A stretch of DNA of 62,594 nt, the filler included, from Rhabdomonas costata (taxonomy: Eukaryota): the NCBI GenBank assembly GCA_019059605.1. It is 33 parts of 33 records of this genome, joined end to end, with 100 filler letters (N's around TTAATTAATTAA, not from the genome) between each part and the next. Parts side by side here need not be neighbours in the genome. Positions count along the whole stretch, not along the records: positions 7,608 to 9,408 come from JAHMHO010008851.1; 32 more parts are not named here. One strand, written 5' to 3'. Both the position numbers and the translations under genes were made by a program. Shown piece by piece: positions 3,615 through 59,400 of the stretch. The notes below the pieces were generated by a model that saw only the letters and a list, made by a program, of their open reading frames with translations, had not been told where the DNA came from and ran no database searches. The stretch's first letter is position 1. The number at the start of each line of letters is the position of its first letter.

Positions 3615-4504
3615 GTTTGTGATAACCTTTCTCCGGGTCCGCCAACTGAAGAATGACTCAGTCCCAATTCTCAATGTCCTTTTCCTCAAAGAACAGTTTC
3701 CCAAAANNNNNNNNNNNNNNNNNNNNNNNNNNNNNNNNNNNNNNNNNNNNTTAATTAATTAANNNNNNNNNNNNNNNNNNNNNNNNNNNNNNNNNNNNNN
3801 NNNNNNTTGTGTTTTTCCATTCCATTTGCAAGAATGAACGCGAGAGCAGAGTGGAATGGAAAAAAACGGCACAGATACATGCTCGCTGAGGCAGAAGTGG
3901 GAACGAAAGCGGCACTGGTGTAAACAATTGAGCGTAACCGTAACCGTGACCGTAACCGCCATATACACGAAGGTGAAGTGGGGGATAAGTAAGGAGGGGA
4001 AATTGGAGAATAGGGAACAGAGCGAGAAGAGCAGGCGGAAATGGAACAATGGCGCAGCGGCGGTCGTCAGCGAGACACTCAAGGTGCACTTTGTAACTTG
4101 ATCTGGATCCCGGACCCTCTTACGTAGGCGTAGAACCGGTTATGTAAATCGTCGTGGCGTTTGGATTCTTATGCATTTCTGCGGCAGTGAGGGATTAATA
4201 TGGAAGCCCCAAGACTTGCGTTATTGCAATGGTTTGCTTCGGTGAGATTACAGGGGTGAGTGCAGGCAAGTGACACCGAGACCCTGATTCGAAAAGTTCA
4301 CTTGGCTTGTTCTACTTGGGGCTGATGGGTTAGGGTTCGACTTAGACCCAGAGTTGTGGACGACACCTTCAGGTTTGACGCTGCCATTTTTTCGACCTCA
4401 CGCCCAGCAGGGGCGATCTTTTGTTCGGCAGTGTTTTTCCTTTGCAGTGCTCTATACAGCAACCCTCTGTTAGTTTTGTCCAGTGAGCTTGCTTGCAGCG
4501 GAAA

Positions 4505-5093
4505 ATGTGTTCGTGGCGCATTCTCTTGAGTTGTGTGGTCGCCGCATCGCTGCTCTTCGCTTCCGTAGTCGAGGCCTTGACGGTGATGTCCGGGCTCTTC
4601 TACTACCATGACTGCTGCCTTACGTTGTGCACGTCGGGATTTTGCACTGCCATGGAGCTGCAGCGTTACCATCCTTTCTGTACCAACCAGACCTGCTTCG
4701 ATGCAATGCATAAGAGCCCTAAACTCTTCACGAACGTCTTCAAGACTGCGGTTGACCAAGTGTGTTCCGCGCACGCCACGGCCGGGGCCAACCCCCATGC
4801 ATGCGAACGGTTTGATATGGTTGTCTCGGACGAACTACACTATGATTCGATGTCCTGGACAAAGCCTGCGTTCCAGAAGGTTGCCCCTTCACCCCAATGG
4901 ATATACCAAGGTCACCATCGGTCCCATGCTGCGTCGGCGTTCTACGGATCGCCTTTCAACTCCGCTCTCGCACTTGCCGTCGACGGTATCACAGTCGTCA
5001 CCTACTATGCAAGCCGGATTCAAGGTTTACGAGAACTCAGGCGGGCGCCCAAAGCTCATAATCCCGTGGCTGCCTGGTCTTTCTGCATCTTAG
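4505..5093 (+). CDS. Carbamoyltransferase (NodU/CmcH/TobZ family) N-terminal Kae1-like domain with signal peptide; first exon
   Basis: ATG at 4505; hydrophobic leader MCSWRILLSCVVAASLLFASVVEA; YYHDCCLTL..MELQRY (HD...ExxR); HHRSHAASAFYGSPFNSALALAVDG, the family HxxxH...DG signature. Likely donor G|GTGTGC after 5093. Confidence 0.8.
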
Positions 5094-5351
5094 GTGTGCA
5101 TGCTTTTGTTTACGGCCCTGATCGTTATGATATGTGTTCCGTTCTCCCTTTGTCTAGTTGTATCCAAGTTGGAATTGACGGTGTCTACTCCTCTCCTTTC
5201 TTCACTGAGCCCATTCAGTTACCAAAAATCCACAGCTACCCTTGCTGTGCTGAGAGTGGATTGTTAAGTCGACGACATTTTTTAAAAGGAAGAGGAGGTC
5301 TATGGAGTACTTCTCTGCATAATAGGGGAGCCGGGCGAGTTTGCACCTCAA

Positions 5352-5600
5352 GTGCAATGAGCGCTTTTCGGAATGCTTGCGAAATCGTTCACTCGTTCAG
5401 TTATAATCTCAGAAATTGTCATATCTTCCGAAACAATAGTACAAATAGTGGTCTAGGGCATCCTTTTGAAGAGTCATCAAGTCCAACGGATGTCTATTGG
5501 CGACTATTTGTACTATTGTTTCGGAAGATATGACAATTTCTGAGATTACAACTGAACGAGTGAACGATTTCGCAAGCATTCCGAAAAGCGCTCATTGCAC
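5352..5600. repeat. Long inverted repeat (98-bp arms, 1 mismatch, 53-nt spacer) at contig end
   Basis: 5352-5449 is the reverse complement of 5503-5600. Confidence 0.9.
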
Positions 5601-6137
5601 CAAAACCNNNNNNNNNNNNNNNNNNNNNNNNNNNNNNNNNNNNNNNNNNNNTTAATTAATTAANNNNNNNNNNNNNNNNNNNNNNNNNNNNNNNNNNNNN
5701 NNNNNNNTATTTGCTCATTTCGTTCCAAAAAAAAAACGCATATCCGTTTCGCACAATGCACCCGTCTGAGGTTTAATGTCTTTTGTGAATATCTAATGTA
5801 ATTTTGTATAAAGTTTAAAATATTTTGCTGGGGTTGTGAGTGCGGTTCCTACAGATGGGTGCAGTGCTCGCTTTTTGTTTGTAATATTGCTGAGCCAGTT
5901 CAGCTTTCCCACAGCCCCCACCCTCATTACTCCTGCTGAGCTGCAGCAAGGGCAGATGGAACTTGATGGTCCATCGCACCAGAGCAGAGTAGAATCTCCC
6001 ATTGAGCCGATGATTGCCGTTAAAAGTTGGACGCGGGCGTCCGTATGGATTCTCGGAGAATCACTTCATTTTGTGTCGTTGCGGTGTTACAAAGCTAACC
6101 AGAATCGCCTTCCATCTGCGGGGACTTGCTCTCTCAG

Positions 6138-6874
6138 ATTGCGATGGTGATGATGATGGCCGTGGGGCTGGCGGCCTCGGCGGCTGCCGTGAAGACGTTC
6201 TCCGAGGAGCGACCCATGTTCTGGAGAGAGGCCTCCGCGGGGCACAACAGGCTGGCGTACTTCCTGGGCAACACCTGGGCCACCGTGTACCGCTTCAGCC
6301 TAGCCGCGCTGCACTTCGCCACGGTGTACTACGTCATGGCCACCCCGATGATTGCCTTCAAGAGAGTACTGGCGATTGTCCTGCTGACCTTCTTCGCGGT
6401 TTATGGGCAGGTTCACGGAAATCGCTTTCTGTGGAACATGCGTCTCTTTCCTCATCTCTCCGTTTTCCTCCCGTTGTTTTGTTTGAGTCTGCTCCAGGTC
6501 GGAAGCGACAGAGATGATGGAAGGACATCTGCCCCTGCTTATCCCAATTTCTCAACAGAATTTAGAGGAGAAATCGGAGGAACCCCACACGAAGTGTTTG
6601 CGCGGGTTCCACGGCTATGTTTTTGAATTACTTGTGCACCAGCTGCGCCCCGTCAACGACACACACGTTGGCCTGTTTTCGTTCCATCATATGCTAATCG
6701 TCTCCGCGTCTGTGTATAGTGTAGGGCTTCCGGTTTGCACTCTCTACCCCTGTGCTGCAGGCCTGCTTCCTGTCAATGTTCGTGCGCCGCGAGGACGCCC
6801 CATTGCTGGCCGTGGTGATCTCCCTGTTCGCGGCGGTGTTCAACGGCTACATCATCAGCCTCCCAGACCCTTTG
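6138..6874 (+). CDS. ABCG (White-type) transporter, ABC2 membrane-domain exons (6138-6410, 6761-6874)
   Basis: KTFSEERPMFWREASAGHNRLAYFLG matches the ABCG FxxE(R/K)xxFxRExxxGxxxxxAYF motif, followed by TM helices. Phase-0 GT-AG intron. Confidence 0.88.
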
Positions 6875-7923
6875 GTCCTCCGAAACATATTTGAACGCGA
6901 TGGCACAACTTTTCCAAAAGCAAACAAAATACAGGCACACTCTGAACAGGTTGCCCAAAAACCTAGCAGCCGCACTCCTTGGTCGGGTTCAGGGGGGTGG
7001 GGAGGTAACAGTTACCATTGGTACCAGAAAACAGAGTTTTTTTTTGGACGGCACTGCTTCACCACTGTTCAGTGGAAGGTCCACCTGCAAACATCAAATA
7101 GCAAACAGCAAACAGCACACACACAGAACAAAATGGAGAGAGGTGGTACAAAAAATGAGTGCGGATCTCTGACTAAGTTTTGTTACATTAACTTGCAAAG
7201 AGGTAATGAAATGACTTTATTTCAGTGTAGGGGGGTAGGTGAAGTGGTAGGGGGGGGGGTAGGTAACTGTGCCAGTGCTCTGGAGATATCCTCTGGAATA
7301 TGGATGGTGGAGTGGTGAGCAATATTTTTGGGACTGAGGGCAGGGACCCGACGGAGACCAGTCCGCGGCGCGGTCAGAGCGGGCGGCTCGGGCAGGAACA
7401 TGACCTGGGGGGCCTTCAAGGCCTTTTTAAAAAGATTCTTCTCCAATGGGAAAATTGCCAACAAGGACCGTTGCCCCCCCCCCAGCTAAACTTGTTCACC
7501 ACCCCACNNNNNNNNNNNNNNNNNNNNNNNNNNNNNNNNNNNNNNNNNNNNTTAATTAATTAANNNNNNNNNNNNNNNNNNNNNNNNNNNNNNNNNNNNN
7601 NNNNNNNTTCTCTTACAGATGTGCTGTCGGGTGAATCCAGGACCAGGACCACTTCTGTTTGGAGATAGATGAGCTCGATTCCCACATGGGGAATGGGGAG
7701 TGGCACCGCAGATCAAAGCGGAGCCAGGCAGACGGGAACATGCCCAGCGATCTGCAGAGCTTAAAAAGGGTGGTGGAACCCCGACGCAAGAAGTGATAAG
7801 CGCAAGAGGGACTGTGGGAGGTGATTGAATGCGGAGAAAATCAATCAGATTACCGTCAACAACAAGATTCCGCTCCATGAAGCATAAAAAGTAGGGAAAG
7901 CGCAACCGCGCGCTTTTTGCCAA

Positions 7924-9376
7924 ATGGTAAAGCAGCGAATTACTTCGGGTATTCTTTTTGCAAAGTACATTCCAGTAAGTATTCAGTACATATTATGATA
8001 AAGTCTTTTCATGTGAGAGGATGAAATTCTCACATTGGGCTTCGCATCGCAGTTCACATTTCTCCCCTCTTCTTCTCTCTCAAGGCTGTGCAACTCACGA
8101 TGTCTCAGATTCAGAGCCAGGGAGAATAGCACCAGCTCTAGCATTGGCAAATGATCCGGCAGTCATTTATGATTTCCAGCGGGCTGGCATCGTAATCCTT
8201 ATGGTCGTTACGTTAGAGTCCTCTAGGGACGTCGCTTGATTCCTCCCACTCAATGATGCAGTAATCAATCATCGGCTCTGGTTTCAAACTTACGGCAGGT
8301 ACGATTCCCAGGCGCCAGCAAAAGGAAGGTAGTAATGCAGAGGGAAGAAGAGAGAAGGAAGGTAATGCAGACCTCTGTGTCGTGCGGCTTTGAGTTGGCA
8401 GCTGTGATACCGTACGGCGTGCTTGAGCATTTGGTCAGCTTGTGCCCAGCTCCGGGAGTACAGCGGGAGAAAACGGAGTACAAGGGTCACACTCAGTTGA
8501 AAAATAGACTTGGAGAATTTGTGTGCGAAACCCAGAAACCCCAGATTTGCGCTTGCTTTGTGCTGTGAATGCAGCTCCTTTGCTCTCGTCTCAGTTGACA
8601 TCAGTTTCATTGTCGCTGAAATCCGAAAAAGATGCGTGGGTTTGCGTTTGGCCAACTTGTACGATGTAACACCAAAAGTTTATCTTCTGAAGTTTGCGAA
8701 GCCCGACTGCAAGGAATGCCTTTGTTTCAAACCCTCCGCTTTGCCTTTTTGCTATTTGTTCTTCCTACTTGGACGGTGGTGTTGCCACAGGAGCTCATTG
8801 TTGTTGAGTCGGGAGTTCGCGTTCACCTCACCGCTTACGCCAGAAGTAAACCCTCGGTGCCTTCTTCCTTCACCATCAAGCTTCGCAAACATCTTCGCAC
8901 GTGGCGACTCGAAGGAGTAGAGCAGTTGGGATTCGATCGAATAGTCGATTTCACCTTCGGAATGTGTGTTTTGGCAGCTGGCTTTTGTGGCTTTTGAGCG
9001 TCAGCGTTGCACTTCGTGTGCTTTGGTCTCATCTCTTTCATTAAAGTGGAGAAACAGCTCATCATCTGATTTTGGAATTCTACGCGAAGGGAAACATCAT
9101 TCTCACCGACAGCAATTATACGATAATTTCCATTCTGCGAACTTACAAGCAGGTGCAGGCAGGTTTTTGTTTTCCCTCATTTTCTGCATTTCTCAAGCAG
9201 CATATTCGTGCATGAATACGCGTCGCTTCAGGATGAAGGCGCTAAATACGCTGTCAAAGAGCATTACCCGGTAGAGGCCGTTGTTCCGCGATGTCCTCTC
9301 GACCGAAGTCGGCTCAGCTCGCTCTTGTCTCCACCTGAAACTACGACTCTGAAGCAGTTGCTTAATAGCAACCTCG
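7924..9376 (+). CDS. NEMF: NEMF/Rqc2 ribosome quality-control factor, N-terminal five exons (7924-7948, 8595-8713, 8791-8963, 9047-9152, 9232-9376)
   Basis: Spliced: MVKQRITSVDISFIVAEIRKRCVGLRLANLYDVTPKVYLLKFAKPDCKELIVVESGVRVHLT...[56 protein letters not shown]...ILRTY. This is the NFACT-N domain with DR and ExxxxGNIILTD motifs. Exon phases are consistent; intron 2 is non-canonical. Confidence 0.93.
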
Positions 9377-9532
9377 GTGCGTCACTGGTTATATTTTCCA
9401 AAACCCCCNNNNNNNNNNNNNNNNNNNNNNNNNNNNNNNNNNNNNNNNNNNNTTAATTAATTAANNNNNNNNNNNNNNNNNNNNNNNNNNNNNNNNNNNN
9501 NNNNNNNNGTTTTTTTTGGATTGCTGTCGCAG

Positions 9533-17790: not shown

Positions 17791-18373
17791 GTCGTCGTCG
17801 CTAACCCCCCCCCCCCAACGTTTTGCGTTGCGGGAGCGGATAAGACCGTCCTCGACGGGTTCCCTCCCTTCTCAAAAGCAAACTGGCCGGAGGCTCGCGC
17901 TCTACAGGCTACTACCCCACACACCAAACCCAATCTCCTTGGTGTAATTTAATGGGCTTGCTCCGCGAGGAGATGAAAAAAGATATAAAAAAGCGACCCG
18001 TTGGAGACACCCTTTGATTCAGAATGCCACGCGAGGCGGGAACTGGCAGAAACTGCGGGTGTCAGGAGAGTTGTGAGAGTGGAAACGAAGTCTTTGAAAA
18101 GAGTTGGGAAGAAGAGCAATGAGGGCAAATCAGTAACAATGGTCGTTGATTTTTTTCACACGGACGATCCAATGAAAAGAATCACGTTGATGGATAAACA
18201 AAAAATCAAACAAGTCGTGGAGGTAGGTGAAAGTGAAAGAAATGAGGCAGTGTGGTGGCGGGCAGGGCCGATTCAAAACTAGGAAAACACTGTAGACGTG
18301 CGGTAAACGCTTACCTTTCTGCGAGGTTGGGTTTGACATACTTCTAGTTGGCGCTTTCGAACACCTGGCTACT

Positions 18374-18592
18374 ATGGTGAAAAGAATTGGGAAGTACGAA
18401 CTTGGGAAAACACTTGGAAAGGGAACCTTTTCCAAAGTAAAATACGCCGTTAATGTGGAGACGAATCAGGCTTATGCCATCAAGATCATTGATAAGGCTC
18501 AGCTGGCAAAGGAGCACATGGAGGATCAGCTCAAGAGAGAAATTGCCATCATGAAGCACTTAAAGCACGACAACATCGTTCGAATGATTGAG
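18374..18592 (+). CDS. CIPK/SNF1-related (CAMK group) Ser/Thr kinase, first exon
   Basis: MVKRIGKYELGKTLGKGTFSKVKYA...AIKIIDK...MEDQLKREIAIMKHLKHDNIV contains the Gly loop, AIK lysine and alphaC Glu. Donor AG|GTGTTT after 18592. Confidence 0.92.
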
Positions 18593-19748
18593 GTGTTTGA
18601 TTGTTTGTTTTTGGTGTCCCCTCCTTTTAGTCTCTCTCTTTCCTGAATGAATCCTCACCCTCAGCTCACGAGTGACACTTGAGTGCGCTTGATTCCAATT
18701 CATCATCAGAAATGGGGATGGGACACTTACTTCGGCCCAATACCTCGCCCTATTCGCTGGGTGACCCTTTGGGCCCTTTGGGGGCCTCTAGCTTTTCCCT
18801 TCCCTTCACACAGGCTTGCAAGGGCCCTTTTTGGCCCTTTGCAGGCCTGCATAATGATAAGAGAAAGAACCGTAAGTTAACACACCGTCCACCCACCACA
18901 NNNNNNNNNNNNNNNNNNNNNNNNNNNNNNNNNNNNNNNNNNNNTTAATTAATTAANNNNNNNNNNNNNNNNNNNNNNNNNNNNNNNNNNNNNNNNNNNN
19001 GTGGGGGGGTTCCTGAAAATGGCTTGGTGTACCTTGCACTTCAGAGTGAGAGATGGACAAGTTGAAGCAGCTTTTTCACAAGTGGCGGTCGGCGGAGTTG
19101 GGTCGCGTACGCAATCTTGAAAACACCAAGGCCGCCAGTGAGCTTTTTCGGGCAACATTTTCAACTCGCTTCCGACCCGAAAGAAAGGGCTAGGTATGTA
19201 TGGTTGGTATGGACCAAGCTGGTGGTGGCATCAGCCTTCGCACAGATAATGGGGTCGGCGTTGCATAAGTTGATACTTTAATCCACTTTTTGTCTTTTTT
19301 ATTTTTGCTTTTTTTATATTAGCGAACCCGACCTGCCGTTCCGGTGGCAACTTTTCATGCCCTGCGGGTTTCTCTGCCAGCAGTGCAGTCTTGTGCGCCT
19401 CGCTTTCCTGCAGCCAAGCCGAATGCTGCAGTGCCGGTACGCCCTCTTGATTGTTCCAGAAAAATGGGTTGCTATTGTGGTCATCGGCACCGACAGATGG
19501 CGTGATCATCAGCCCATCATCGGCCCATCATCGTAAGCGCTGAAAAGCAAATCCATCGTTGGGCACCGACTTCGGTCGCATGTGCACATTGCTCGCCTAC
19601 CACAGACTTCTCATCACGAACCTTTGCAGCAAGATAGTGGTGCATGAAGGTGCATGAAGGTCGGTGGTAATGGTGGTGGCAGCATTGGCCGTTTTGATAG
19701 CGAAATGAACACTTCGGAACCGTTCTCTTCCTTTTTTTCAAACCCCAG

Positions 19749-20281: not shown

Positions 20282-21054
20282 GTGTGCCGCTTCGCAGGAA
20301 AATCGCGCATGCAAGTCGTGGTGGTTGTGCCCCATCTGCCCGAACACGGAAACCTTTGTTTGCATTGCTTGGCTGTGATAAACTGTAGCTTGATGGCAGT
20401 GTTGTGCGGTGCTGTACCTCTGTGGTGAGGTCCCGTTTTTTTTTTCGAAACATAGACAGGTGACAGGGGCACTGGCTGTGATGTGAGCTGCCCCAATTTT
20501 TTTGCTATGCAATTTCTATCTTCTTTTTGCTTTGGGTGTGGAAAGTCGTCGTTTCCGTTCCATGTGTATTTACAGTTGCAGAGCCAAAACCAGCACCGGT
20601 GGTCCATCGGAAGCTTCGAATCCCGCCTTCCCGACCCGCAGGTATGGAATCATCTATTCCATGCTATTGCGTCTGATGCCTCATTCCATCTCCCCTTAAT
20701 TGTAATTTTCGGCCAATTAGGGTTGGTGGCAGGGAGATGAGGTCTTGCGCGACCCCTGGGTGGTAGTGGTTTTTGTCATTGTTTTGTTACCCCACCCCCC
20801 NNNNNNNNNNNNNNNNNNNNNNNNNNNNNNNNNNNNNNNNNNNNTTAATTAATTAANNNNNNNNNNNNNNNNNNNNNNNNNNNNNNNNNNNNNNNNNNNN
20901 TTTTTGGGGGAGCACATGAACATTTTTGAGTCTCTTTTCAAGCCATTTTTATGGAGTGGAATGGAGTTTAATGGAATGGACATTTGAACATTTCACCTGA
21001 CGTGCTTCCACTATCCAACCGCGAAACGGCCTCTGGATGTTTTTTTGCCTGAAG

Positions 21055-22478
21055 GTGGCTGTGTTCCTTCGGGAGTTGCTACTTCCCTGCGAGCCCAGCA
21101 ATGCCCGCGTTGCGGTCAGCCTGGAGCGCAGCCCCCTGCTCGTGATGGCCATCCTCGGGATTGTGAAGAGTGGGGCGGCGTACGTCCCGATCGACCCGAG
21201 CTACCCCAAGGAGCGGGTGCAGTTCATGCTGTCGGACTGCCAGGCCGCGGTCGTGCTGGTGCAGCGCAGCACTCAGGCACCAATGGAGGCCTGCGTGGGA
21301 TCCCAGGACACCCGCTTGCTTTGCCTAGACGAAGAGTGGGACAAGGTTTCCCTCCCCTCGCTGACTTTGCCTTTTGCATGGGCTTTCCATGGTTGTGGTG
21401 CAGTTGGCGGGTGCTATTGCTCAACCACCTTTTCGGACGTTTAACTTCATTCACATGGCCTTTGTCTTGCGATTGTATGTGAACCAGATCACTGCCTTCT
21501 TTTACAAAAGCGGTTTTATGAGCCTGTGTGCTTGAAAAATCTAATGCAGGCTTCCGAACACTACTTGCGGAGGCTGCGGTCAATATGCTTCTGGCTGAAA
21601 GATCATAGCAGCAAGGCGAGGTAGTGGTGGGATAAGGACTCAGTGCTGGTGACACGCAGGACCGCCAAAAGACACGAATAAACACGAGGAAGAGGAAAGC
21701 AGGAGAAAAGGTTGACAAAAGTTGACTTGAGAGGTCCCCCCCCCCAGGACACTAGCAGGTTCGTCAGAATTCGTGCAACTATATTCAAAGACAGGAAAAC
21801 GCGGGCCAACAAACCCGCGGCCCGAGGCCCAAGGCCGCGGTGCACTGTGGGGTATGGGTGGGACAAGTCTTTGTAACGGAGTGAAAATAACGTACTGCAC
21901 AGCAAAACCGGGTGCCCATCCATGGTAGTTGCATAGTACAGGGACTACCCACCTCAGTCAGCAACGCGTGTGGAACTTCAGCGAGGACCGAACCAAAATG
22001 GTCACGCCAACGTTCAAAATGAAAATATATTTCGCTTTGTACGTAAGCAAAAGGAAACTACAACAAGAAACACGAGGACAACAAAGTCAAGTGCATGGGG
22101 ATAGGCATGTGAAGAGAGCGTGTGAAACTGCCCCTGTTTTCATTTTTTGGACGCCCCTCCCCCGCGCTCCAGGTGCTGGAGTGCAGTGAGACCCTCCCGT
22201 TGATTCCCTCCTCTGCGGAGTCGCTGTTCTACGTGATCTACACCTCGGGCTCCACAGGGCGCCCCAAGGGGGTGGCCCTGCCGCACCGTGCCCTCACCAA
22301 CTTGGTGCGGTGGCAGCTCGATGAGCTCCGGGACGGCGTGGAGGGCTCCCGCCGCCCCCCGACCACGGTGCAGTTCCAGCCTGTTATCTTCGACGTGCAC
22401 GCCCAGGAGATCTTCGGGACGCTCTGCGAAGGGGGCACCCTGGTGCTGATGCCCGAGGAGCTGCGGTGGGATCCTGTG
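21055..22478 (+). CDS. NRPS adenylation domain, two exons (21055-21345, 22173-22478)
   Basis: Core motifs A2 ([20 protein letters not shown]), A3 ([15 protein letters not shown]) and A4 (FDV) are present. An 827-nt phase-0 GT-AG intron lies between the exons. Confidence 0.93.
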
Positions 22479-22906
22479 GTGCGCTGCAGTGGGCGGGACT
22501 GTTTTCCAGTGACCATGAGAAATAGTAGAAGGTTTTCTCGAAGCCCCAGCATCCTATGTACCGTGCGTTTGTTCCCAAAGAGAGGTGCACGTGTGCGATA
22601 TGTTTTTTGGTATCGCTGGGCCCCCTTACAGTGAAGACTCGCGTGTTTCTGACGAGGAAGAGAGAGAGAGAGAGAGAGGGGGCCCAGCGACACCAAAAAN
22701 NNNNNNNNNNNNNNNNNNNNNNNNNNNNNNNNNNNNNNNNNNNTTAATTAATTAANNNNNNNNNNNNNNNNNNNNNNNNNNNNNNNNNNNNNNNNNNNNG
22801 TGGTGTGGTTCTGACTTGTTGTGAGCTTGGTTATCAACGAAATGTAGTTCCTTCCGGCGGAAACTAACTGCGGGAGTGAGGATGAACCTGCCGTCCTTGC
22901 TCGCAG

Positions 22907-28550: not shown

Positions 28551-29448
28551 TACACCGCGCGCAGGTCATTGATGCCCAGCTTGCTGCGGATGTGCTGCAC
28601 GATCAGGTCGATCGCCATGTCGTTGTACCGCATCCCCCTTGTTTTTTTTTGGATGCGCTTCCCTGGCCAATGGAGTGCTTATCCCTATCCAACGGCCATG
28701 TCCAGTTCCAAGTTAAAACGCACCCCCCCCCCCAAAAAAAAAGGGCACACCGGACCACCAGACCGGTGCAGAAACGCGAGCGCCCGACCAGAAAGAAATG
28801 GCTGAGTCAAGAAAAGCGCTCAACATGGGAACAAACTATGTGAATATTACACTAACTCGTCCACGGTTGGTATACTAAATAAAAGCAGAACTGATGCATC
28901 CTGCAGTCCATGCAATTCTTCTCGGTTTGAACTCTTTAAGCGCCCACACCTCGGTCCTAATCTCATTCACCAGTCACGGCCAGCGCGATCCAAGTTAACC
29001 CCCCGCCCCCAATCTATCCTCACAAATAAGTGTACGTGTGTGTGGGCGTGTGTATGTGTGTGTGCGTGTGTGTGGTGTGTCTGCGTGGGCGGGGTGACAT
29101 CCTTTGGCGAAGTTGACCAGGGGAATGTTTTTATGTGCCCCTCACAAATGCAGCAGGCCAGAAATCCAAGAAACGTGATACCTTGTGCTACCCGAAAGAG
29201 TCAATCAATGAGAGCAACAGAAACCCTGTTCCACGCATAGCAGTACTTGCACTGTGAGACGCTGCTCCATTTTCTCGGGCATTTCTTCACACATAGCGGA
29301 TACACAACCACACACAAACAGACCAAGGGATGATGACGTCCGCGTATTTCCGGCTGGGGGAGACGTAGCGGTCGAACGAGGGCTTCACAAAGCTGGTGTA
29401 CTGGTGCAGGATTCCCGCCACGTCACGCCCGCGCTCCGCCGTGTCCCT
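28551..29448 (-). CDS. Uridine kinase (UK/UKL type), exons 29448-29324 and 28637-28551 (truncated)
   Basis: [71 protein letters not shown] contains the uridine kinase RDxxERGR...VKPxF...P..KYADVIIP and AIDLIVQHI motifs. Confidence 0.92.
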
Positions 29449-31259
29449 CTGTGAAAGGGACGTGCACACCACTATTAGGCGCGAAGTTCTGTTGCTAGAG
29501 TTGGCTTCTTTTTCGTATGGGGGGGGGGGTAGTGCTTTCTGGTGCTGTTTAGACAAAAGTATGCATTATACGTGCACACACGCAAGCAACAGAGAAAGAC
29601 TGGGGAACACGAATTAGGTAGATTGCGGATTGCGTACGATGAACATGGGTATAAACGTAAAAGCATCCTTCCATTTGTACCAAAGGTCAGCAAAGAAGAC
29701 ATTGCACCACCTTAGCTGTGGTCCGTCCAATACATCCACTCTGTTCAGATACCGTGGTTTCAATGAGTATCCTCACTCTAACATTTAGATACCTTCACAC
29801 ACAGTTCTAAATAAAATAAAGTTCAAAATAAAATAGGCAAAAGACTCAAAAAATTTTTCAGAGCCGTTTCGCCCACGTATCGTGGAGTACGAATCAAAGC
29901 CTTTCAGCAGCATTAAATGCATTTACCGTCCTCCAAACGTCTGGATAAATTACACAGACTCTGCCTTGGACTGCGCTGGAAAGGCCCCCATATTGGCTCG
30001 ACTGGGATGCAATCAAATGAATGAAGCAGCGTATGAAGTTCAGCACGCAGCACGTTTTTGGGACATGGGAATTTTTTTTACCGCCACTATCCTGTGTCAT
30101 ATGTGAGCATACCGCATACTGGGTTTCGAACTTTAGGGGATTCCGCACCAAGTTATGATGATGCCCTCTGGCATTATCACATTATCAAAGCGATTCTTAT
30201 GGGCCATATGCCATGTCAATAGCGAAGGACATCCGCATGTTGGGAAAACAGTGGTATCCCAGCAACGGTGAGCTGAAAGTGGCGGTTTTGAATCCAAAAC
30301 AACNNNNNNNNNNNNNNNNNNNNNNNNNNNNNNNNNNNNNNNNNNNNTTAATTAATTAANNNNNNNNNNNNNNNNNNNNNNNNNNNNNNNNNNNNNNNNN
30401 NNNGGGGGGGGAGGGGGGTATCAGACATCAGACGAAAAGCAGTTGGATATCGAGACATCCGAAATGGGTGCCCTTTTTCCCCGTGATTTCGTACTTATTT
30501 TTGACGGACAGAGAGTAGAAAACATTAAAGTTCAAATCAGCAGTGAATGAAAAATGGAACAGAGCGAATGTCCCTCGCATACACGCGCGCTGTCTATGGG
30601 TGCTCGCATGATGAGCCTTATAGCACTGTTCGGAGCGGTGTTGATTTTTGACGACAGGTGCGGATTCTGTGACTGGCGGCTTTTGTTGAAGGGTATGTAA
30701 TATCCGGGTTGGAACCCAGTCATGTTCTGTGGTGCAGTTCTGAGCTTACGAGCTTACGGTGAGACGTACTTTGGTGCAATGGAAGTTGGGTGGGGGGGAG
30801 TGGTACCTGTTAACCCTGGTACCCTCGGTGCCAGTGGTACCAATTTTCACTATGGGAGCATATTTCAAAAAAGTTGTTAAGGCCTCCCCAGGTCACGTCC
30901 CCGTCCCAGCCGCCCGCTTTGGCCACGGCGCGGACTTCGCCCCTAAACTAATGCTGTCCTACTCGTCGGCCCATATCGCAGCCATTGGCGAGCCCTTAGC
31001 AAGCAGTAGTTTTCAGCTGCTAAGCAAAAACAGCTATCCAGGGGGCATTGGCAAAGCTAACCTAACCCGTTTAAACAAAAAAACTCATTTCGAAAGTGCT
31101 GACACATTCTACGCGACCGTTAGTGTTTTATTGAGCAGAAAATTTATGAGAGAGAGTTTTCTGACACCACTTCCCCCACCAAACTTCCATTGGGTCCGTA
31201 CTTTACTACATACACGACGAGAAGTTTCTTAGGATGGCGGGGAAGAACGAGCTCCGCGC

Positions 31260-39767: not shown

Positions 39768-40358
39768 CTGTGTTGTTTCGAACCATCCATTAACTTNNNN
39801 NNNNNNNNNNNNNNNNNNNNNNNNNNNNNNNNNNNNNNNNTTAATTAATTAANNNNNNNNNNNNNNNNNNNNNNNNNNNNNNNNNNNNNNNNNNNNTCGA
39901 AATCATTATTCATGTGCTGCATCCTTGGGTTGGATCTTGGAGCAGGTCTGGTCGTTTTTCCCTGGCTGAGCGCACACAACTTGAGCTGACTCGGCCATGT
40001 CAGTATTCCCCTCAGCACTGGAACAACGCGAAGATTTGAAGTCTGTTATAAAAAAACAACCAAGTGGCAAACCCCCGCTGAGAGTGAATGGGCCAGTAGC
40101 ATTTCTGCATATTTTATATCCCAATCCTGCTTCGTTCTGGCGCTCGCTAACACTCAGCAGTCACGAATTTCGTTCGCAATAAAATATACACCGATTTACC
40201 ATAAATAAAGCAGACTCTCTATCTTCTCTCAGCAAAATCACGGGAACCGGAAAGGCTGTGCTGTTTCTCGCGTTGTTCTTTTGCGAGCAGTGTGGTGAAT
40301 ATCCCCCTCATTTGCAGTGCAACTGCGTGGTGGTGTTTCCCTGTTTGAACCTTCTGAG

Positions 40359-41234
40359 GTGAGCCGGTGAACATTCTAACCCACTGCAATGCGGGGTGGC
40401 TGGCCTTCGTGGACTACGGCACCGCCACGGCGCCGATCTACGCGGCACATGACCGGGGTATTGCTGTTCACGTGTGGGTCGATGAGACACGTCCCAGGAA
40501 TCAGGTCAGGGCCCTTCGGGAAGCCTTCTTCATCTTCTCCTTCGTCTCGTGGGTTGTTTTACTTGCCACTTGCCGTAGATCTACTAACGTTCCCGCACTA
40601 GCTTGTGAAAGGCAAGAAGGGCCTCAAAAAGAGTCTCGAAAAGACAATTGCTCTTCTGGGGGAGCGATCCAACGCGACCGATTCACGGCTTTCTTCCCGT
40701 GTGATGTAGGTGCAACACGATATTTCTGCTTTTCCGTTGCGCTTTACTTCTTGCAACTGCAAAATAAGGCCATTCGTGAACGGACCCCTTCCTCAATCAT
40801 CCGAGGCCTCACTGGAAGTGAGGAAATGAGAGTGAGGGTTTGTATGCCCACCAGGAGTCCCCACTGGTACCAGAGTGGCTTGCTTTGTGGCTTGCTTTTG
40901 TAGAAGAGAAAGAGAGTACACCATCCGCATGGCAGTGTGACCGGGGGTAGGGTGCCAAGCTCACTGCGTGGGAGCTGCTGCAGCACGGCGTGCCCCACAC
41001 TGTGATTGCCGATAACACCGGAGGTCATCTAATGCAGCACCAGATGGTGGACATGGTGATCACGGGCACCGACCGTACCACCAGGGCGGGGGATGTGGCA
41101 AACAAGATCGGGACGTATCTGAAGGCCCTCGCAGCCTTCGACAACCAGGTGCCGTTCTATGTGGCGCTGCCCTCGACCACCTTTGACTGGAACCTGCGCG
41201 AGGGAAAGGACATTCCCATTGAACAGCGCGGCAG
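40359..41234 (+). CDS. mtnA: Methylthioribose-1-phosphate isomerase, exons 40359-40504 and 40951-41234
   Basis: [23 protein letters not shown]...[18 protein letters not shown]...[11 protein letters not shown]...GTDR...[10 protein letters not shown]...[12 protein letters not shown]...IPIEQR covers all the MtnA motifs. GT-AG intron. Confidence 0.95.
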
Positions 41235-44271: not shown

Positions 44272-45364
44272 CAGGTGGCTCTGGTAGAAGAAGTATTTCT
44301 TGTTCTCCCCAGGGAAGAGCATTTTCCGAAGAAGGTCATCCATGGCTTCCTTGCCCTGCCTCTCCTCAGGAACTCCGTTGTTACCTTTTCAGGAGAGGAC
44401 CAGGAAGTAACAAAGAGAGTGCCAAACTTGTTCCACCGCTCTCCCACTTGCGCAGTGCCGGGAATCAAAAAGAACTCTCCCGATGCACCGATATTAAAAT
44501 AGTCGTCTTCAATAAGCCAACCTCAAGGGCTCTCTTCAACTGAGCGGTCAGGTGAATGAGGGTGCATACGCCGTTATACGGTCATAAATCGAAAATGTTT
44601 TTCGGGTTTTTGGGGGACTTCCATGTCGATTATTATTGTTGATGAGAGCTCATTTCTTGCGGGGCTCCAGCTAACAACTAAGACAGGATTATTTTAGAGG
44701 CCGCGGCGCGGCGGGGGGGTTACCTTCGATCCTATGCGATGCACGATGCACGTCAAGGCGAAGCGTGTACGCTGGTGTGTTCGGGGGTCGGGCCCCTGGT
44801 TACGTTTCTTCCTTCACCGTATATCATCAAAAATGGACCGGATACTAATCTGTCTGCTAAGTCTGCGCAAACTGACAGAGGGAAAGAGTGGGAGAACGAA
44901 GTCAGGAGCGCAGAAGACGCACAGCATGGCATGACTTCATGCACACACACACACACACACCAAACGCTGTCCGATGCTGAAATCCGCCATCCACCCAAAT
45001 CTAAATGAAAAAAAGAAAACACAAACCCTTGCACACTTGCGCAGAGTAAGCGCGGTGATTTTACGAAGACAAACATGGAGTGAAAATTTCAATCCTCCAG
45101 CAATCACATCGATGCCATGGAATTAACGAAATCAGTCCATGCGGTAGCTGACGGCTGGTGAGACTTCTTTGGGCCCTCCTCGCTGCTTGAAGCCGATGCT
45201 CCCAGCGCCCGACCAAAAAGCCCCCGGCGTAGCCTTACCTCGATCCGGTCTCCTCCCGGCTTGGAAGAGAGGGAGATCCCGCAAACGCTGTGGTTGGTGT
45301 TGTCCACCAGCTGCTCCCCCAGCAGCAGAAAGCACGTCTGAGTCCAGAGCTTGAACCGGAAGTC
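44272..45364 (-). CDS. eIF4E-family cap-binding protein, exons 45364-45239, 45000-44961, 44384-44272
   Basis: Spliced: LWTQTCFLLLGEQL...VCGISLSSKPGGDRIE|IWVDG...KMLFPGENKKYFFYQSHL contains the eIF4E W..LxxIGE, CGxxxS, RIxIW and YxSH motifs. Confidence 0.85.
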
Positions 45365-45903
45365 CTGGAAAAGGGTGCGCAAGGGCGTCACATATCACTC
45401 CTTCACTGACAGAGACACGAAAGCGAAACCCAAGGCACACACTCGAACCCATGAAATCCTCGACTCGGAGACACGAACCCAGAACCCAAAACANNNNNNN
45501 NNNNNNNNNNNNNNNNNNNNNNNNNNNNNNNNNNNNNTTAATTAATTAANNNNNNNNNNNNNNNNNNNNNNNNNNNNNNNNNNNNNNNNNNNNTTGTTTT
45601 TGTCGAAATTCATGGGGTCCGTGTCAATGTGCATGGGGAAATTATGGCAAGATCATGGATTATGTAATGATAGGTTAGTTTATGGATCTTCAACACAACC
45701 TTTTCCTCCCATTCAGGACGGAATTTGAAAGTAAGGAAAATGGGCTTCCAACCGTACAATTGCTTCATAGTGCATGGGAAAATGGGCTTATAGGCTGCCG
45801 GCCTGGGACCATCCCAAAGTCAGGTTGCCGTTGTATTCACCGATCCTCGGGCACGAAAACAAAAACTCGGAACTCCCGACTGCGCTGTGCTGAAGCACTG
45901 AAG

Positions 45904-56298: not shown

Positions 56299-56484
56299 CT
56301 AAAACCCAGGCATCCCAAGCTCCTTCCGCAGCCGCTCATAGGTGACCCAGAAGATAAACTGCCACGGTCCAAGCCGGGCCCATCCCGGTAGAAACCCGGA
56401 GAACATCTTCAGCGGCCCTTCGTGGGTAAGAATATGCTTCAAGCAGCTCAACTGCGAGGAATGGCCTCCAGACATCATCCGAGT
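56299..56484 (-). CDS. Mitochondrial carrier (UCP4/uncoupling-protein-like), terminal exon
   Basis: TRMM...CLKHILTHEGPLKMFSGFLPGWARLGPWQFIFWVTYERLRK*. The third SLC25 repeat ending RLGPWQxxFWVxYE is typical of UCP4-like carriers. Confidence 0.9.
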   Translation of the reverse strand, partial: TRMMSGGHSSQLSCLKHILTHEGPLKMFSGFLPGWARLGPWQFIFWVTYERLRKELGMPGF

Positions 56485-59400
56485 CTGCAACCCCACCACC
56501 CCATAAGTCGACGCACTTAGGGTTGAGTTCTTGCCAAACAGCCCGCAAAGCATCCTCGCTACAGTAGATAAGGTAGCATGCAAGCGGATTCCCAAATGCA
56601 TCCACCCGCTATCGCACAAGGTAAACAAACAAAGGAGCTGATGAACGGGGGAGCACTTAAAATATATGCCCACATGCTGGGGAGGAAGGAGCGTATTTCC
56701 GCGCAATTGTTGGAGTTTTCTCACCTAACTCACGGCGAAATAACACAATCGCACAGCCAAGAGAGGTGACGGCAAAAGATGAAAATCGTTGCGGGCACAC
56801 CGGCGTGCAGGTGGGCGGACGGTGTGCCAGCCTACAGTTCTTTCTCTTAACAAAGCCCAAGCCCGATGTAAAGCCAGCGCAAAACCAAACCNNNNNNNNN
56901 NNNNNNNNNNNNNNNNNNNNNNNNNNNNNNNNNNNTTAATTAATTAANNNNNNNNNNNNNNNNNNNNNNNNNNNNNNNNNNNNNNNNNNNNGTGTTTGCA
57001 AACCCACTCTAAGCAGAAGTTGCAAACAGATGCAAATAAACTTAACCGGACAGATATCACAAGGCAGTTCAAGGGTCATCTGCGTACGTCGGAAGTCACG
57101 TTCGACGCCCTTTCTATAACTGCTGCTGGGAAGAAGAAGATCAGTCGGTCAGTTCCAAACATGGGAAGCGGTGTGCATTTCGTCATTGCTGATCAATTAC
57201 CGAGGGACTCAACCCAGAGACTGGATCTCTTATACTTGAAGAGGTTTCCGGAGGCACTCGAAGTGTCGCGTGGGTGGCTATGATTTAAATATCTTAATTG
57301 CGTTTCTGATCTACAGCGGTGCGCTGTTCCGCGGTAATCAGTTCATGCTGTCCCCGATTCGGGAACGTTTGATCAAAACGGGGCAAGAAGTCAGAGTTGC
57401 GCCCGCAAGAGGACAAGGCACATACCGCAGGAAGCAAGCAGGCGTGCTCCGATAGTTTCTTCAGCAGTTTCGGCGCTTCCTGTTTCGTAGAAAAGGGCAA
57501 AACCACCAAAGACAGAGCATCAAAAATCAAACCGAAAGCTTGAGTTGTTCATAATACCGGGAGGGAAGGAACGCGCTTGCATAACCCCATCTTCACCTTC
57601 ACAGTCAAAGAAGAAAGCAAGAGAATCCAGCCGCACTTTCCCCGTGATATTACTGTGTCGTATGTGGGGTTGCCACCGTGCAGTCCGTGAAGTCCGTGTC
57701 ATGATTTTTTCCATGATATTTCCCCATGATATTTGCCCATAATTTCCCAGCACTCAGGCATGTTCCTCAATCCTCATTCCAACCAAACCAAAGGAAAAAG
57801 TGTGGTTGCATACAGCTGGAGTATAACCACAATTAAACTTGGCAACTCCCTCTCGGTTCTAATTTCAACGCACGAAGAATGAAATGAGGAATTTTGTAAT
57901 TTAAAACGAAGTGCAAACGCAGGGACCTGTGACAGTGCGAGGTGCACTGAACTTTGAAGCACGAAAGAGTGAAAATGTGGTTCTTCTAAACCTTAACAGA
58001 TCAAATTTCGCATATCATTTTCGTTATAGTTCGTAATTGCAGTCCGAGAATTTTGACGAATTTGCGAAGGACAAGGATGCTGGTACCAGGGTTGGCGTAC
58101 GCCCTTGGAAAGAGTTGCTTTGTGTAACTAGATTTTTGTTTGGGTTTTCCCCTTGGTTCCCTCCCGACATCGAAACTTGCCATACCGTTTTTTGTCGATC
58201 TTTTCCCAAGTACTGCACACAATGACAGTGCCATAGGACCCCCCGTGCGAGCACCCAGGCTGCGCGCGTCTTGACGATGACATCTTTTCTTTTCTTCCCC
58301 TTTTCACCCGCTCCTCCGTCTTTTCCTTTCGCGCACAACATATACAGTCATATACAAACTTATGTGCTGTCCCAGTCACTCAAACCAAAAGTGCGGGTGT
58401 ATTTATCTTCTTGCTATCACCGTGTGCACTGTTTGTCCTCCTCGCCAACCAGTGCAATTTATTGAGTTGCCTTTTTCACGATCCTGAACTTGTGCGATGA
58501 TTCTCAACTTCGTATGAAAAAAATTTCGTTTGTTGGTTTGTGGTTTTGAATGCAAGCTGTTACAAGGTCACTTTGGAGGGTGGTGGGACGCTAATTTTTG
58601 AAACCTCATGATCTCGGAGAACAAAGATTGCCAGATGGATCAAGTGTGCCTCTTCATTTTTATGATTTGTGCTCTTATGCGACCCTCATGATTTAAAATT
58701 TCTCATCAAGAGAGCAGAACCAGGAGGGAGGGAGGGAGGGACGCAGAATTTACCTCTGGGTTTCGCTTCACATGAATCGACCCACCACCCNNNNNNNNNN
58801 NNNNNNNNNNNNNNNNNNNNNNNNNNNNNNNNNNTTAATTAATTAANNNNNNNNNNNNNNNNNNNNNNNNNNNNNNNNNNNNNNNNNNNNCTCCCCACCC
58901 CCCGCAACAGTCGAGGCGTGATACGGTGCACTGTGTCGGGCGTACAGCGCGCTAGCTTTGCCTACCTGGCTGTTGGAGCGGACCGCGCGCCATTGGGCAC
59001 ATGTGCTCGCCACTGCAAGAGTTGCGAAACCCCTTTCCCCTGTCTCACCCGGCCTCCTCTTCCTAAATCCGAGTTTTCCCTTTTCATCTCCCGTGTCGGG
59101 CTCTTTTTCTACTTTCTGGTGAAAATGGAAGTGGGCCACTACGATGATGATTGGACCGTGTGCAGTCCGAGAGGTAGCTTCGGAGCCCACACTACCGTGG
59201 GGCGAAATGTGTGTGTGTGTGTGTGGCAGCTATTGGGTGCTGAACGAACTGGGGAGGGAGCTAATGATGCCCAGAGGAGGATCATAACCTAAATTGATGG
59301 CATCAAGGACACAGTGTTTAGATTTTCACGGTTATCGCCCTCTAGCTTCCTGAGCGACCTGAGCGCAAGACGTAGCTCAGGCCTTCGATAACACCACTGC

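Follow-up and report, generated by a model that had tools for sequence, protein, structure and literature searches.

Introns that begin with GA and end with AG are known but rare in eukaryotes other than euglenids, the described spliceosomal cases including Oikopleura dioica and Eurytemora affinis, where such introns are abundant, as well as the human FGFR genes (PMC7072748). Non-canonical intron borders are also known in euglenids: nonconventional introns account for 71.8% of the introns of Euglena agilis (PMC12501133) and for 16,151 of the 28,337 introns of E. gracilis (PMC11170887). Here, we describe a 77-nucleotide (nt) intron in the NEMF gene of the euglenid Rhabdomonas costata, located at positions 8714-8790 of the analyzed stretch of DNA (hereinafter, the window), for which we find no canonical pair of splice sites that restores the protein and which, in one of its possible registers, has GA-AG ends. 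The window, 62,594 bases altogether, consists of 33 contigs of 1,790-1,806 bases each that are joined by linkers of the form N44-TTAATTAATTAA-N44 (for example, at 9409-9508), so that genes on the two sides of a linker have no physical linkage. The contig that contains the NEMF intron occupies positions 7608-9408, and all the NEMF features described below are on the plus strand.

The nonconventional introns of Euglena carry the signature 5'-N3CDG ... CH'GN5-6^R (here and below, the caret marks an exon-intron border), with pairing that extends past the motif, and their splicing is abolished by single substitutions in the CAG/CTG trinucleotides or by a change of one nucleotide in the 5' spacer (PMC12501133). 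According to the rules derived from comparative analysis, positions +4 to +6 pair with positions −8 to −6, the intron starts with a purine and ends with a pyrimidine, the next exon starts with a purine, and the upstream exon ends in a pyrimidine, the latter in 49 of 55 nonconventional cases (PMC4770533). When scored by the terminal-10-plus-U7 test of Gao et al., the majority of the nonconventional introns have energies between −10 and −2 kcal/mol, and 35% of the GT-AG introns score 0 (PMC11170887). The introns of R. costata are mostly conventional, with GT-AG borders in all 29 complete introns of six marker genes; mapping of the transcripts to the genome yielded 11,418 intron rows, of which 9,461 are GT-AG, 634 are GC-AG and 1,164 have other borders, with read support for only 105 contigs with such borders (PMC8219788). 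Hand inspection of 26 BLAST-annotated cases led to the acceptance of seven as putative nonconventional introns, each of which begins with GC and has a G after its 3' end, and five of which end in CC; the complementary stretches of these introns, as printed, are long and G+C-rich (PMC8219788, Table S6).

The host gene is identified as NEMF by the match of exon 3 to the NFACT_N family (PF05833, E 8.4e-11 in the Pfam scan) and by a five-exon model of 189 codons without a single stop, which, starting at residue 1, runs collinear with E. gracilis NEMF and is identical to it at 124 of 188 residues (66%), with one gap. The matching NEMF proteins carry PF05833, PF05670 and PF11923. The best matches, EG_transcript_3854, GGOE01014608 and a EukProt Trinity transcript, show 71-75% identity across exon 3; the first two we take to belong to the E. 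gracilis and E. longa transcriptomes, respectively. When four euglenid NEMFs were compared with the window using tblastn, the block that ends in KFAKPDCK(E) was placed at 8585/8591-8716 (57-76% identity) and the block (E)LIVVESG...DFTFG at 8788/8797-8961 (65-75% identity). These two flanking blocks lie in different frames and, therefore, 77 nt (2 modulo 3) must be removed between them. In the displayed register, exon 2 (8595-8713, ending in ...VDISFIVAEIRKRCVGLRLANLYDVTPKVYLLKFAKPDCK) closes with GAC TGC AAG at 8705-8713, of which AAG is 8711-8713; the intron opens with GAATGCC, its GA at 8714-8715, and runs to GCCACAG, with AG at 8789-8790; and exon 3 (8791-8963, ELIVVESGVRVH...DFTFG plus two bases, with the PF05833 match noted above) begins with GAG CTC ATT, the GAG occupying 8791-8793. 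The protein obtained by this removal aligns with the four euglenid NEMFs with scores of 423, 410, 405 and 377, the best for all four. Furthermore, in the 95 of the 153 examined NEMF homologs in which both NxYD and ESGxRxH were located, the modal spacing between NxYD and ESG is 21 residues (50 of 95), exactly the spacing given by the removal of 77 nt; the remaining spacings include 20 residues in one homolog, 22-24 in 24 and at least 26 in 20. As far as homology tells, the removal of these 77 nt is correct.

The borders of this intron can slide. The sequence AGGA is present as a direct repeat, with the 5' copy at 8712-8715 and the 3' copy at 8789-8792, and accordingly, five registers, with starts from 8712 to 8716, yield identical mRNAs; a sixth register, 8717-8793, yields the same protein. 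The ends of the six registers, in the order of their starts, are AG-AC, GG-CA, GA-AG, AA-GG, AT-GA and TG-AG, that is, neither GT-AG nor GC-AG appears in any of them. Within 8640-8870, there are 47 stop-free in-frame candidates, 40 with GT/GC-AG borders and seven of the Euglena form N3-CDG/CHG-N5-6, and none of the 47 restores a gap-free NEMF protein. The in-frame canonical donors for the AG at 8790 are GC 8696, GC 8738, GT 8678, GT 8666 and GC 8651, the last three of which would cause deletions larger than that caused by GC 8696. One alternative is that one of the other two is used instead, in which case the intron would be an ordinary GC-AG one, either GC 8738-AG 8790 (53 nt, with insertion of ECLCFKPS) or GC 8696-AG 8790 (95 nt, with deletion of AKPDCK). 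Both options are in frame and free of stops, GC-AG introns make up 634 of the R. costata rows (PMC8219788), and the NEMF loop tolerates insertions, given that 20 of the 95 homologs have the long spacings of at least 26 residues, with exactly 29, the value for the eight-residue insertion, in three. However, both options score below the 77-nt removal against each of the four euglenid homologs (405, 392, 387 and 359 for the insertion; 386, 377, 365 and 342 for the six-residue deletion), and the spacing of 15 residues that results from the deletion was not found in any of the 95 homologs. The donor contexts, TCC^GCTTTG and TTT^GCGAAG, also lack the G+5 that marks the GC-AG introns of E. gracilis (PMC11170887). 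Finally, the ECLCFKPS insert is rich in Cys and Phe, in contrast to the Gly/Ser/Glu-rich insertions of the homologs, and the 24 nt that encode it are intron-like in composition. We consider the use of either GC donor very improbable.

A preceding reading of this DNA from the sequence alone (the sequence-only reading) had assigned the gene to NEMF and the host to the euglenids, and had described the obligatory removal of 77 nt, the slidable AGGA junctions, the GA...AG register and the absence of a GT or GC donor that would preserve the protein. All these assignments hold, that of the host being borne out by the euglenid best matches of NEMF and by another gene in the window with an exon pair that is 100% identical to the protein RCo022308; on the same grounds, we rejected a dinoflagellate origin, which the GA donor with a G after the AG had suggested. 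The remaining introns of the gene are indeed GT-AG, as had been stated, with lengths of 646, 83 and 79 nt and a fifth one, truncated by the contig end, that starts with GT. The assertion that the only in-frame GC donor deletes AKPDCK has to be corrected because GC 8738 is in frame as well.

With the intron set at 8714-8790, its borders are AAG^GAAUGC ... CCACAG^G, such that position +2 is the sole departure from a conventional intron. Because the 5' end is GA (8714-8715) rather than the GT or GC of U2-type introns, we class the intron as a GA-AG variant; the 3' end is a typical YAG (CAG^G), and both the exon side of the donor and positions +3 to +5 are consensus-like (AAG^G.AUG). The conventional 5' consensus of E. 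gracilis is GUGUG (PMC11170887), with which G+1, U+4 and G+5 of the GA-AG donor agree. In its length and T fraction (77 nt, 0.40), the intron closely resembles the neighboring GT-AG introns (83 nt, 0.42, and 79 nt, 0.37). Apart from the GA, the gene has GT at each of its four donors, and the other donors identified in the window, with these four included, read GTATTC, GTGTGT, GTGCAG, GTGCGT, GTCAGG and GTTCGC. That exactly these 77 nt must be removed, that no canonical pair would do so and that the intron resembles the other short ones of the same gene all come directly from the analysis. Taken together, the evidence puts at about an even chance the interpretation of 8714-8790 as a short intron of the U2-spliceosomal type, with GA in place of the GT donor. 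Under this interpretation, U1 and U6 would recognize AAG^GAAUGC despite the mismatch at +2, aided by the consensus-like flanks of the GA donor (AG before, A after, U+4 and G+5), the branch point would lie in or beyond the pyrimidine-rich tract at about 8740-8768, and the CAG^G acceptor at 8790 would be used, joining ...GACTGCAAG to GAGCTCATT... (K^E). We infer, then, that the mRNA is spliced at 8713/8791, that the A at 8715 is genuine and that the machinery involved is the spliceosome.

The GA-AG introns of Oikopleura and Eurytemora share with the NEMF intron the GA and AG ends, the preceding AG and the following A, and in both cases, the remaining positions look normal for the U2 type (PMC7072748). 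The differences are that this class is not described for euglenids in the literature that we found and that the NEMF case comes with no explanatory variant of U1. Full-text literature searches found no relevant paper that links GA-AG introns to Euglena or other euglenids, and a paper on diplonemid splice sites does not mention GA-AG. A search of the entire window against Rfam produced no matches at all, and thus none to small nuclear RNAs or to the spliced leader RNA. We also considered a U12-type intron. The consensus of the U12-type 5' box is RTATCCTT; this box is absent from the NEMF intron, the 5' end of which reads GAATGCCTTTG in every register, and this candidate was accordingly rejected.

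Several observations weigh against a spliceosomal GA-AG intron. The U at +2 is almost invariant among U2-type introns, so that a true GA donor would require a tolerant spliceosome. No junction-spanning, transcript-derived NEMF of R. costata was found among proteins of 98-2000 amino acids (best match, 75% identity), among proteins of 30-97 amino acids (no candidate) or in a library of 1.84 billion representatives (best match, 75%). An end-to-end stem in the register 8712-8788, analyzed below, is rare by pair count, and a plain conventional intron predicts no such stem. The R. costata draft comes from amplified DNA sequenced at 10-20x coverage (PMC8219788). Moreover, the apparent abundance of GA-AG in the published R. 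costata data, which would otherwise speak for this interpretation, is confounded. By our count in the supplement, GA-AG is the most common class after GT-AG and GC-AG, with 43 GAAG and 47 CTTC rows, or 90 of the 11,418, and it includes five of the 26 read-supported annotated non-canonical cases (four GAAG and one CTTC), none of which is among the seven accepted nonconventional introns (PMC8219788). However, ten other single-letter variants of GT-AG hold about 23-69 rows each: approximately 69 GT-GG, 61 GT-TG, 59 GT-CG, 53 GT-AA, 46 TT-AG, 45 GG-AG, 45 GT-AT, 40 AT-AG, 38 CT-AG and 23 GT-AC rows (PMC8219788, supplement; file-wide counts halved, with GC-AG treated as canonical). Thus, GA-AG exceeds the next single-letter variant by a factor of only 1.3. 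Where borders are ambiguous, the aligner probably shifts them to a near-canonical register, and the very frequency of the single-letter variants suggests such a bias rather than the existence of many distinct classes of introns. As an aside on the same data, these variants constitute about half of the 1,164 rows listed with nonconventional borders, at about 23-90 rows per class (PMC8219788, Tables S2/S3).

The quality of the draft bears on a different explanation, namely, that base 8715 is wrong or represents a minority variant, the true base being T. The intron would then be an ordinary GTATGC...CAG one, and the GA would have originated from whole-genome amplification, low coverage or assembly. 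A single T-to-A change at 8715 would suffice to explain everything, and intron 1 of the same gene starts with GTATTC, which is close to the GTATGC that a T at 8715 would give. The published draft consists of SPAdes contigs built from whole-genome-amplified DNA, which confirms the source supposed in the sequence-only reading, with an estimated coverage of 10-20x, an N50 of 1,194 base pairs, 43.5% of the RNA reads mapped and proteins predicted from the transcriptome (PMC8219788). Nevertheless, the NEMF contig is otherwise clean, with its 189 codons uninterrupted by stops or frameshifts. An ATG at 8569 that is out of frame with exon 2 creates the appearance of a 5' frameshift; a frameshift or assembly error at this end of NEMF was ruled out by exon 1 (7924-7948) and the GT-AG intron 1, and once exon 1 is added, nothing in the contig points to indel errors. 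A different contig of the window encodes 143 residues with 100% identity to a transcriptome-derived protein, and a random error would have to hit this exact base with this exact substitution. In addition, among the 26 read-supported published cases, GA-AG is represented by five, compared to 0-1 for each of the other single-letter variants of GT-AG (PMC8219788), which is unlike the outcome of uniform base errors, although this argument against a base error is only indirect because read support verifies the junctions and not the intronic base. On balance, an erroneous or minority base at 8715 appears distinctly unlikely. It is also conceivable that the gene is a pseudogene or a dead allele with a mutated donor and no productive splicing, the change from GT to GA being a classic form of splice-site loss. 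The uninterrupted 189 codons and the collinearity with E. gracilis NEMF argue against this, as do the intact state of the gene's remaining four donors and three acceptors and the 66% identity with a single gap; we view a dead gene as extremely improbable. Even jointly, a GC-AG alternative with an indel and a dead allele remain improbable.

An alternative with a greater, if still low, probability stems from the potential of the intron ends to pair. In the register 8712-8788 (AG...AC), the putative 5' arm of a stem (AAUGCCUUUGUUU, 8715-8727) can pair with the putative 3' arm (GGACGGUGGUGUU, 8771-8783) at 12 of 13 positions, six of these pairs being G-U. Positions +4, +5 and +6 face −6, −7 and −8 as A:U, A:U and U:G, whereas every other register or spacing gives at most 8 of 13 pairs. 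If this +4/−6 helix joined the ends, structure-guided machinery could excise 8712-8788 as a nonconventional or intermediate euglenid intron, or else the helix could compensate for the weak GA donor. Our recount agrees with the sequence-only reading with respect to the number of pairs, including A+5:U−7, and the position of the stem corresponds, as had been asserted, to the published geometry of euglenid nonconventional introns (PMC4770533). The purine at the start of the intron (A), the pyrimidine at its end (C) and the purine in the next exon (A) described in that reading are present too, and the same arrangement is found in most nonconventional introns. The 12 of 13 pairs were reached, in any of 12 combinations of register and spacing, in 29 of 20,000 dinucleotide shuffles of 8712-8793 (about 0.15%), as well as in 0.34% of the within-arm permutations; the 13-mer duplex, at −7.7 kcal/mol, was reached by 2.7% of the permutations. 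The terminal helix is present in both the minimum free energy (MFE) and the centroid structures of 8712-8788, the host is a euglenid, and nonconventional introns typically carry short direct repeats at their borders.

These similarities notwithstanding, the proposal that the intron is nonconventional fares poorly in other respects. In the register 8712-8788, the triplets at +4 to +6 and −8 to −6 are AAU/GUU rather than CDG/CHG, and the CDG/CHG motif with the N3 and N5-6 spacers does not occur in any register; across the six registers, positions +4 to +6 read AAT, ATG, TGC, GCC, CCT and CTT, with the caveat that the Euglena code might apply only in part to Rhabdomonas. A GC start, shared by all seven published R. 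costata nonconventional introns, is absent from all six registers, and the last base of the upstream exon is a purine (A) where a pyrimidine is usual. Folding against shuffled controls, a check that the sequence-only reading had suggested, revealed no extra stability: the MFE of the whole intron is −10.7 kcal/mol (z-score of +1.04), a value equaled or surpassed in stability by 170 of 200 shuffles. The best duplex between the 25-nt ends, at −12.6 kcal/mol, was matched by 13% of the shuffles. The terminal-10-plus-U7 energy is −2.3 kcal/mol in the favorable register and 0.0 in the GA-AG register, whereas three GT-AG introns in the window have terminal-10 energies of 0.0, −5.2 and −6.4 kcal/mol, two of which are stronger than −2.3. 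Furthermore, the stem length of 13 was chosen post hoc, so that the P values for the pair counts are optimistic. The stem is real as a pair count but weak as a structure. One further candidate, a Euglena-code intron N3-CTG ... CAG-N5 at 8704-8795, is in frame but loses DCKEL, is followed by a pyrimidine and does not extend the helix, and was discarded.

Comparison with the described nonconventional introns leads to a similarly mixed picture. The NEMF intron shares with those of Euglena the euglenid host, the borders other than GT or GC, the slidable direct repeats at these borders, the +4/−6 pairing and the downstream purine; it differs from them in lacking the C..G/C..G trinucleotides, in the weak, G-U-rich helix with an energy no better than that of shuffles, in the purine with which the upstream exon ends and in the conventional appearance of the AG acceptor and the flanks. 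With the seven R. costata nonconventional introns, it has in common the non-canonical borders but not the GC start. The 'intermediate' introns of euglenids resemble it in the combination of one conventional end (AG) with end-to-end pairing; however, the published intermediates have a 5' GT or GC and pairing of the CAG/CTG type, and the NEMF intron has neither (PMC4770533). Accordingly, we regard a nonconventional or intermediate intron as unlikely, although to be taken seriously, and the 'intermediate' intron stays a minority reading.

The remainder of the NEMF model is conventional. Exon 1 (7924-7948; MVKQRITS and the first base of the next codon) was delineated by a scan for ATG and by the phase of the join to 8595, and is followed by intron 1 (7949-8594; 646 nt, G^GTATTC ... 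CTCGTCTCAG^T), which is GT-AG by sequence and by the gene model. Downstream of exon 3 lies the GT-AG intron 3 (8964-9046; 83 nt, AAT^GTGTGT ... ATTAAAG^T), identified from the sequence and the model; the GTGTGT run at 8964-8969 contains three GTs, and that at 8964 alone is in frame with the AG at 9045-9046. Exon 4 (9047-9152; tblastn, 66-85% identity) is separated by the GT-AG intron 4 (9153-9231; 79 nt, CAG^GTGCAG ... GCTTCAG^G; sequence, tblastn and model) from exon 5 (9232-9376; DEGAKYAVKEHYPVE...LKQLLNSNL; tblastn and model), after which the sequence shows the start of intron 5 (G^GTGCGT, 9377-9408), cut short by the end of the contig. At the junction of exons 3 and 4, the GT-AG option 8964-9046 yields FG-I-GET. 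At the position of the I, R or Q is present in the euglenid homologs, and S would result from a non-canonical AT...AA register, 8962-9044; the canonical option was adopted.

Other genes in the window were identified largely by a Pfam scan that covered 250 open reading frames (ORFs) of at least 85 amino acids, out of 724 ORFs of at least 50 amino acids. The plus strand contains matches to an AMP-binding enzyme in two exons (21001-21441 and 22113-22631, between which about 28 profile positions are missing), an ABC-2 transporter (6099-6623), a protein kinase (18296-18643) and, weakly, the N-terminal domain of carbamoyltransferase (4487-5530). On the minus strand, there are matches to PRK/uridine kinase (29290-29565), a mitochondrial carrier (56302-56724) and, weakly, eIF4E (45107-45394). 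A methylthioribose-1-phosphate isomerase gene spans 40358-41234; its exons, 40358-40504 and 40951-41232, encode the 143 residues that are 100% identical to eukprot:RCo022308, a name that we take to designate R. costata, and the intron between them (40505-40950, 446 nt) is GT-AG. The next-best relatives of the isomerase are bacterial or metagenomic proteins with 70-86% identity, so that this gene may be of bacterial type and yet contain spliceosomal introns.

A broader possibility is that GA-AG introns, a class that has escaped discussion, are a genuine third type in Rhabdomonas and perhaps throughout the euglenids, with the NEMF intron being a transitional form rescued by its helix. We consider this scenario rather unlikely. 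It would imply that a conventional intron lost a donor identity sufficient for U1 recognition and was rescued by the end-to-end +4/−6 helix, in which case the NEMF intron would be a snapshot of the conversion between the two euglenid intron types. The use of GA-AG by euglenids is not discussed in the literature we found, and the R. costata paper does not mention it in its main text, although such rows are present in the published supplement (PMC8219788). As a single case drawn from sequence, in a lineage where non-canonical introns were known before, the present finding is a modest addition. Nevertheless, if base 8715 is truly A and splicing occurs as inferred, the spliceosome of one euglenid, or a machinery that partners with it, would tolerate GA donors, and in euglenid gene prediction, models restricted to GT/GC-AG would break the present NEMF gene. 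The finding, if true, would also bear on the interpretation of the GA-AG rows, approximately 90 in number, of the R. costata table and on the question whether the conventional and nonconventional introns of euglenids interconvert.

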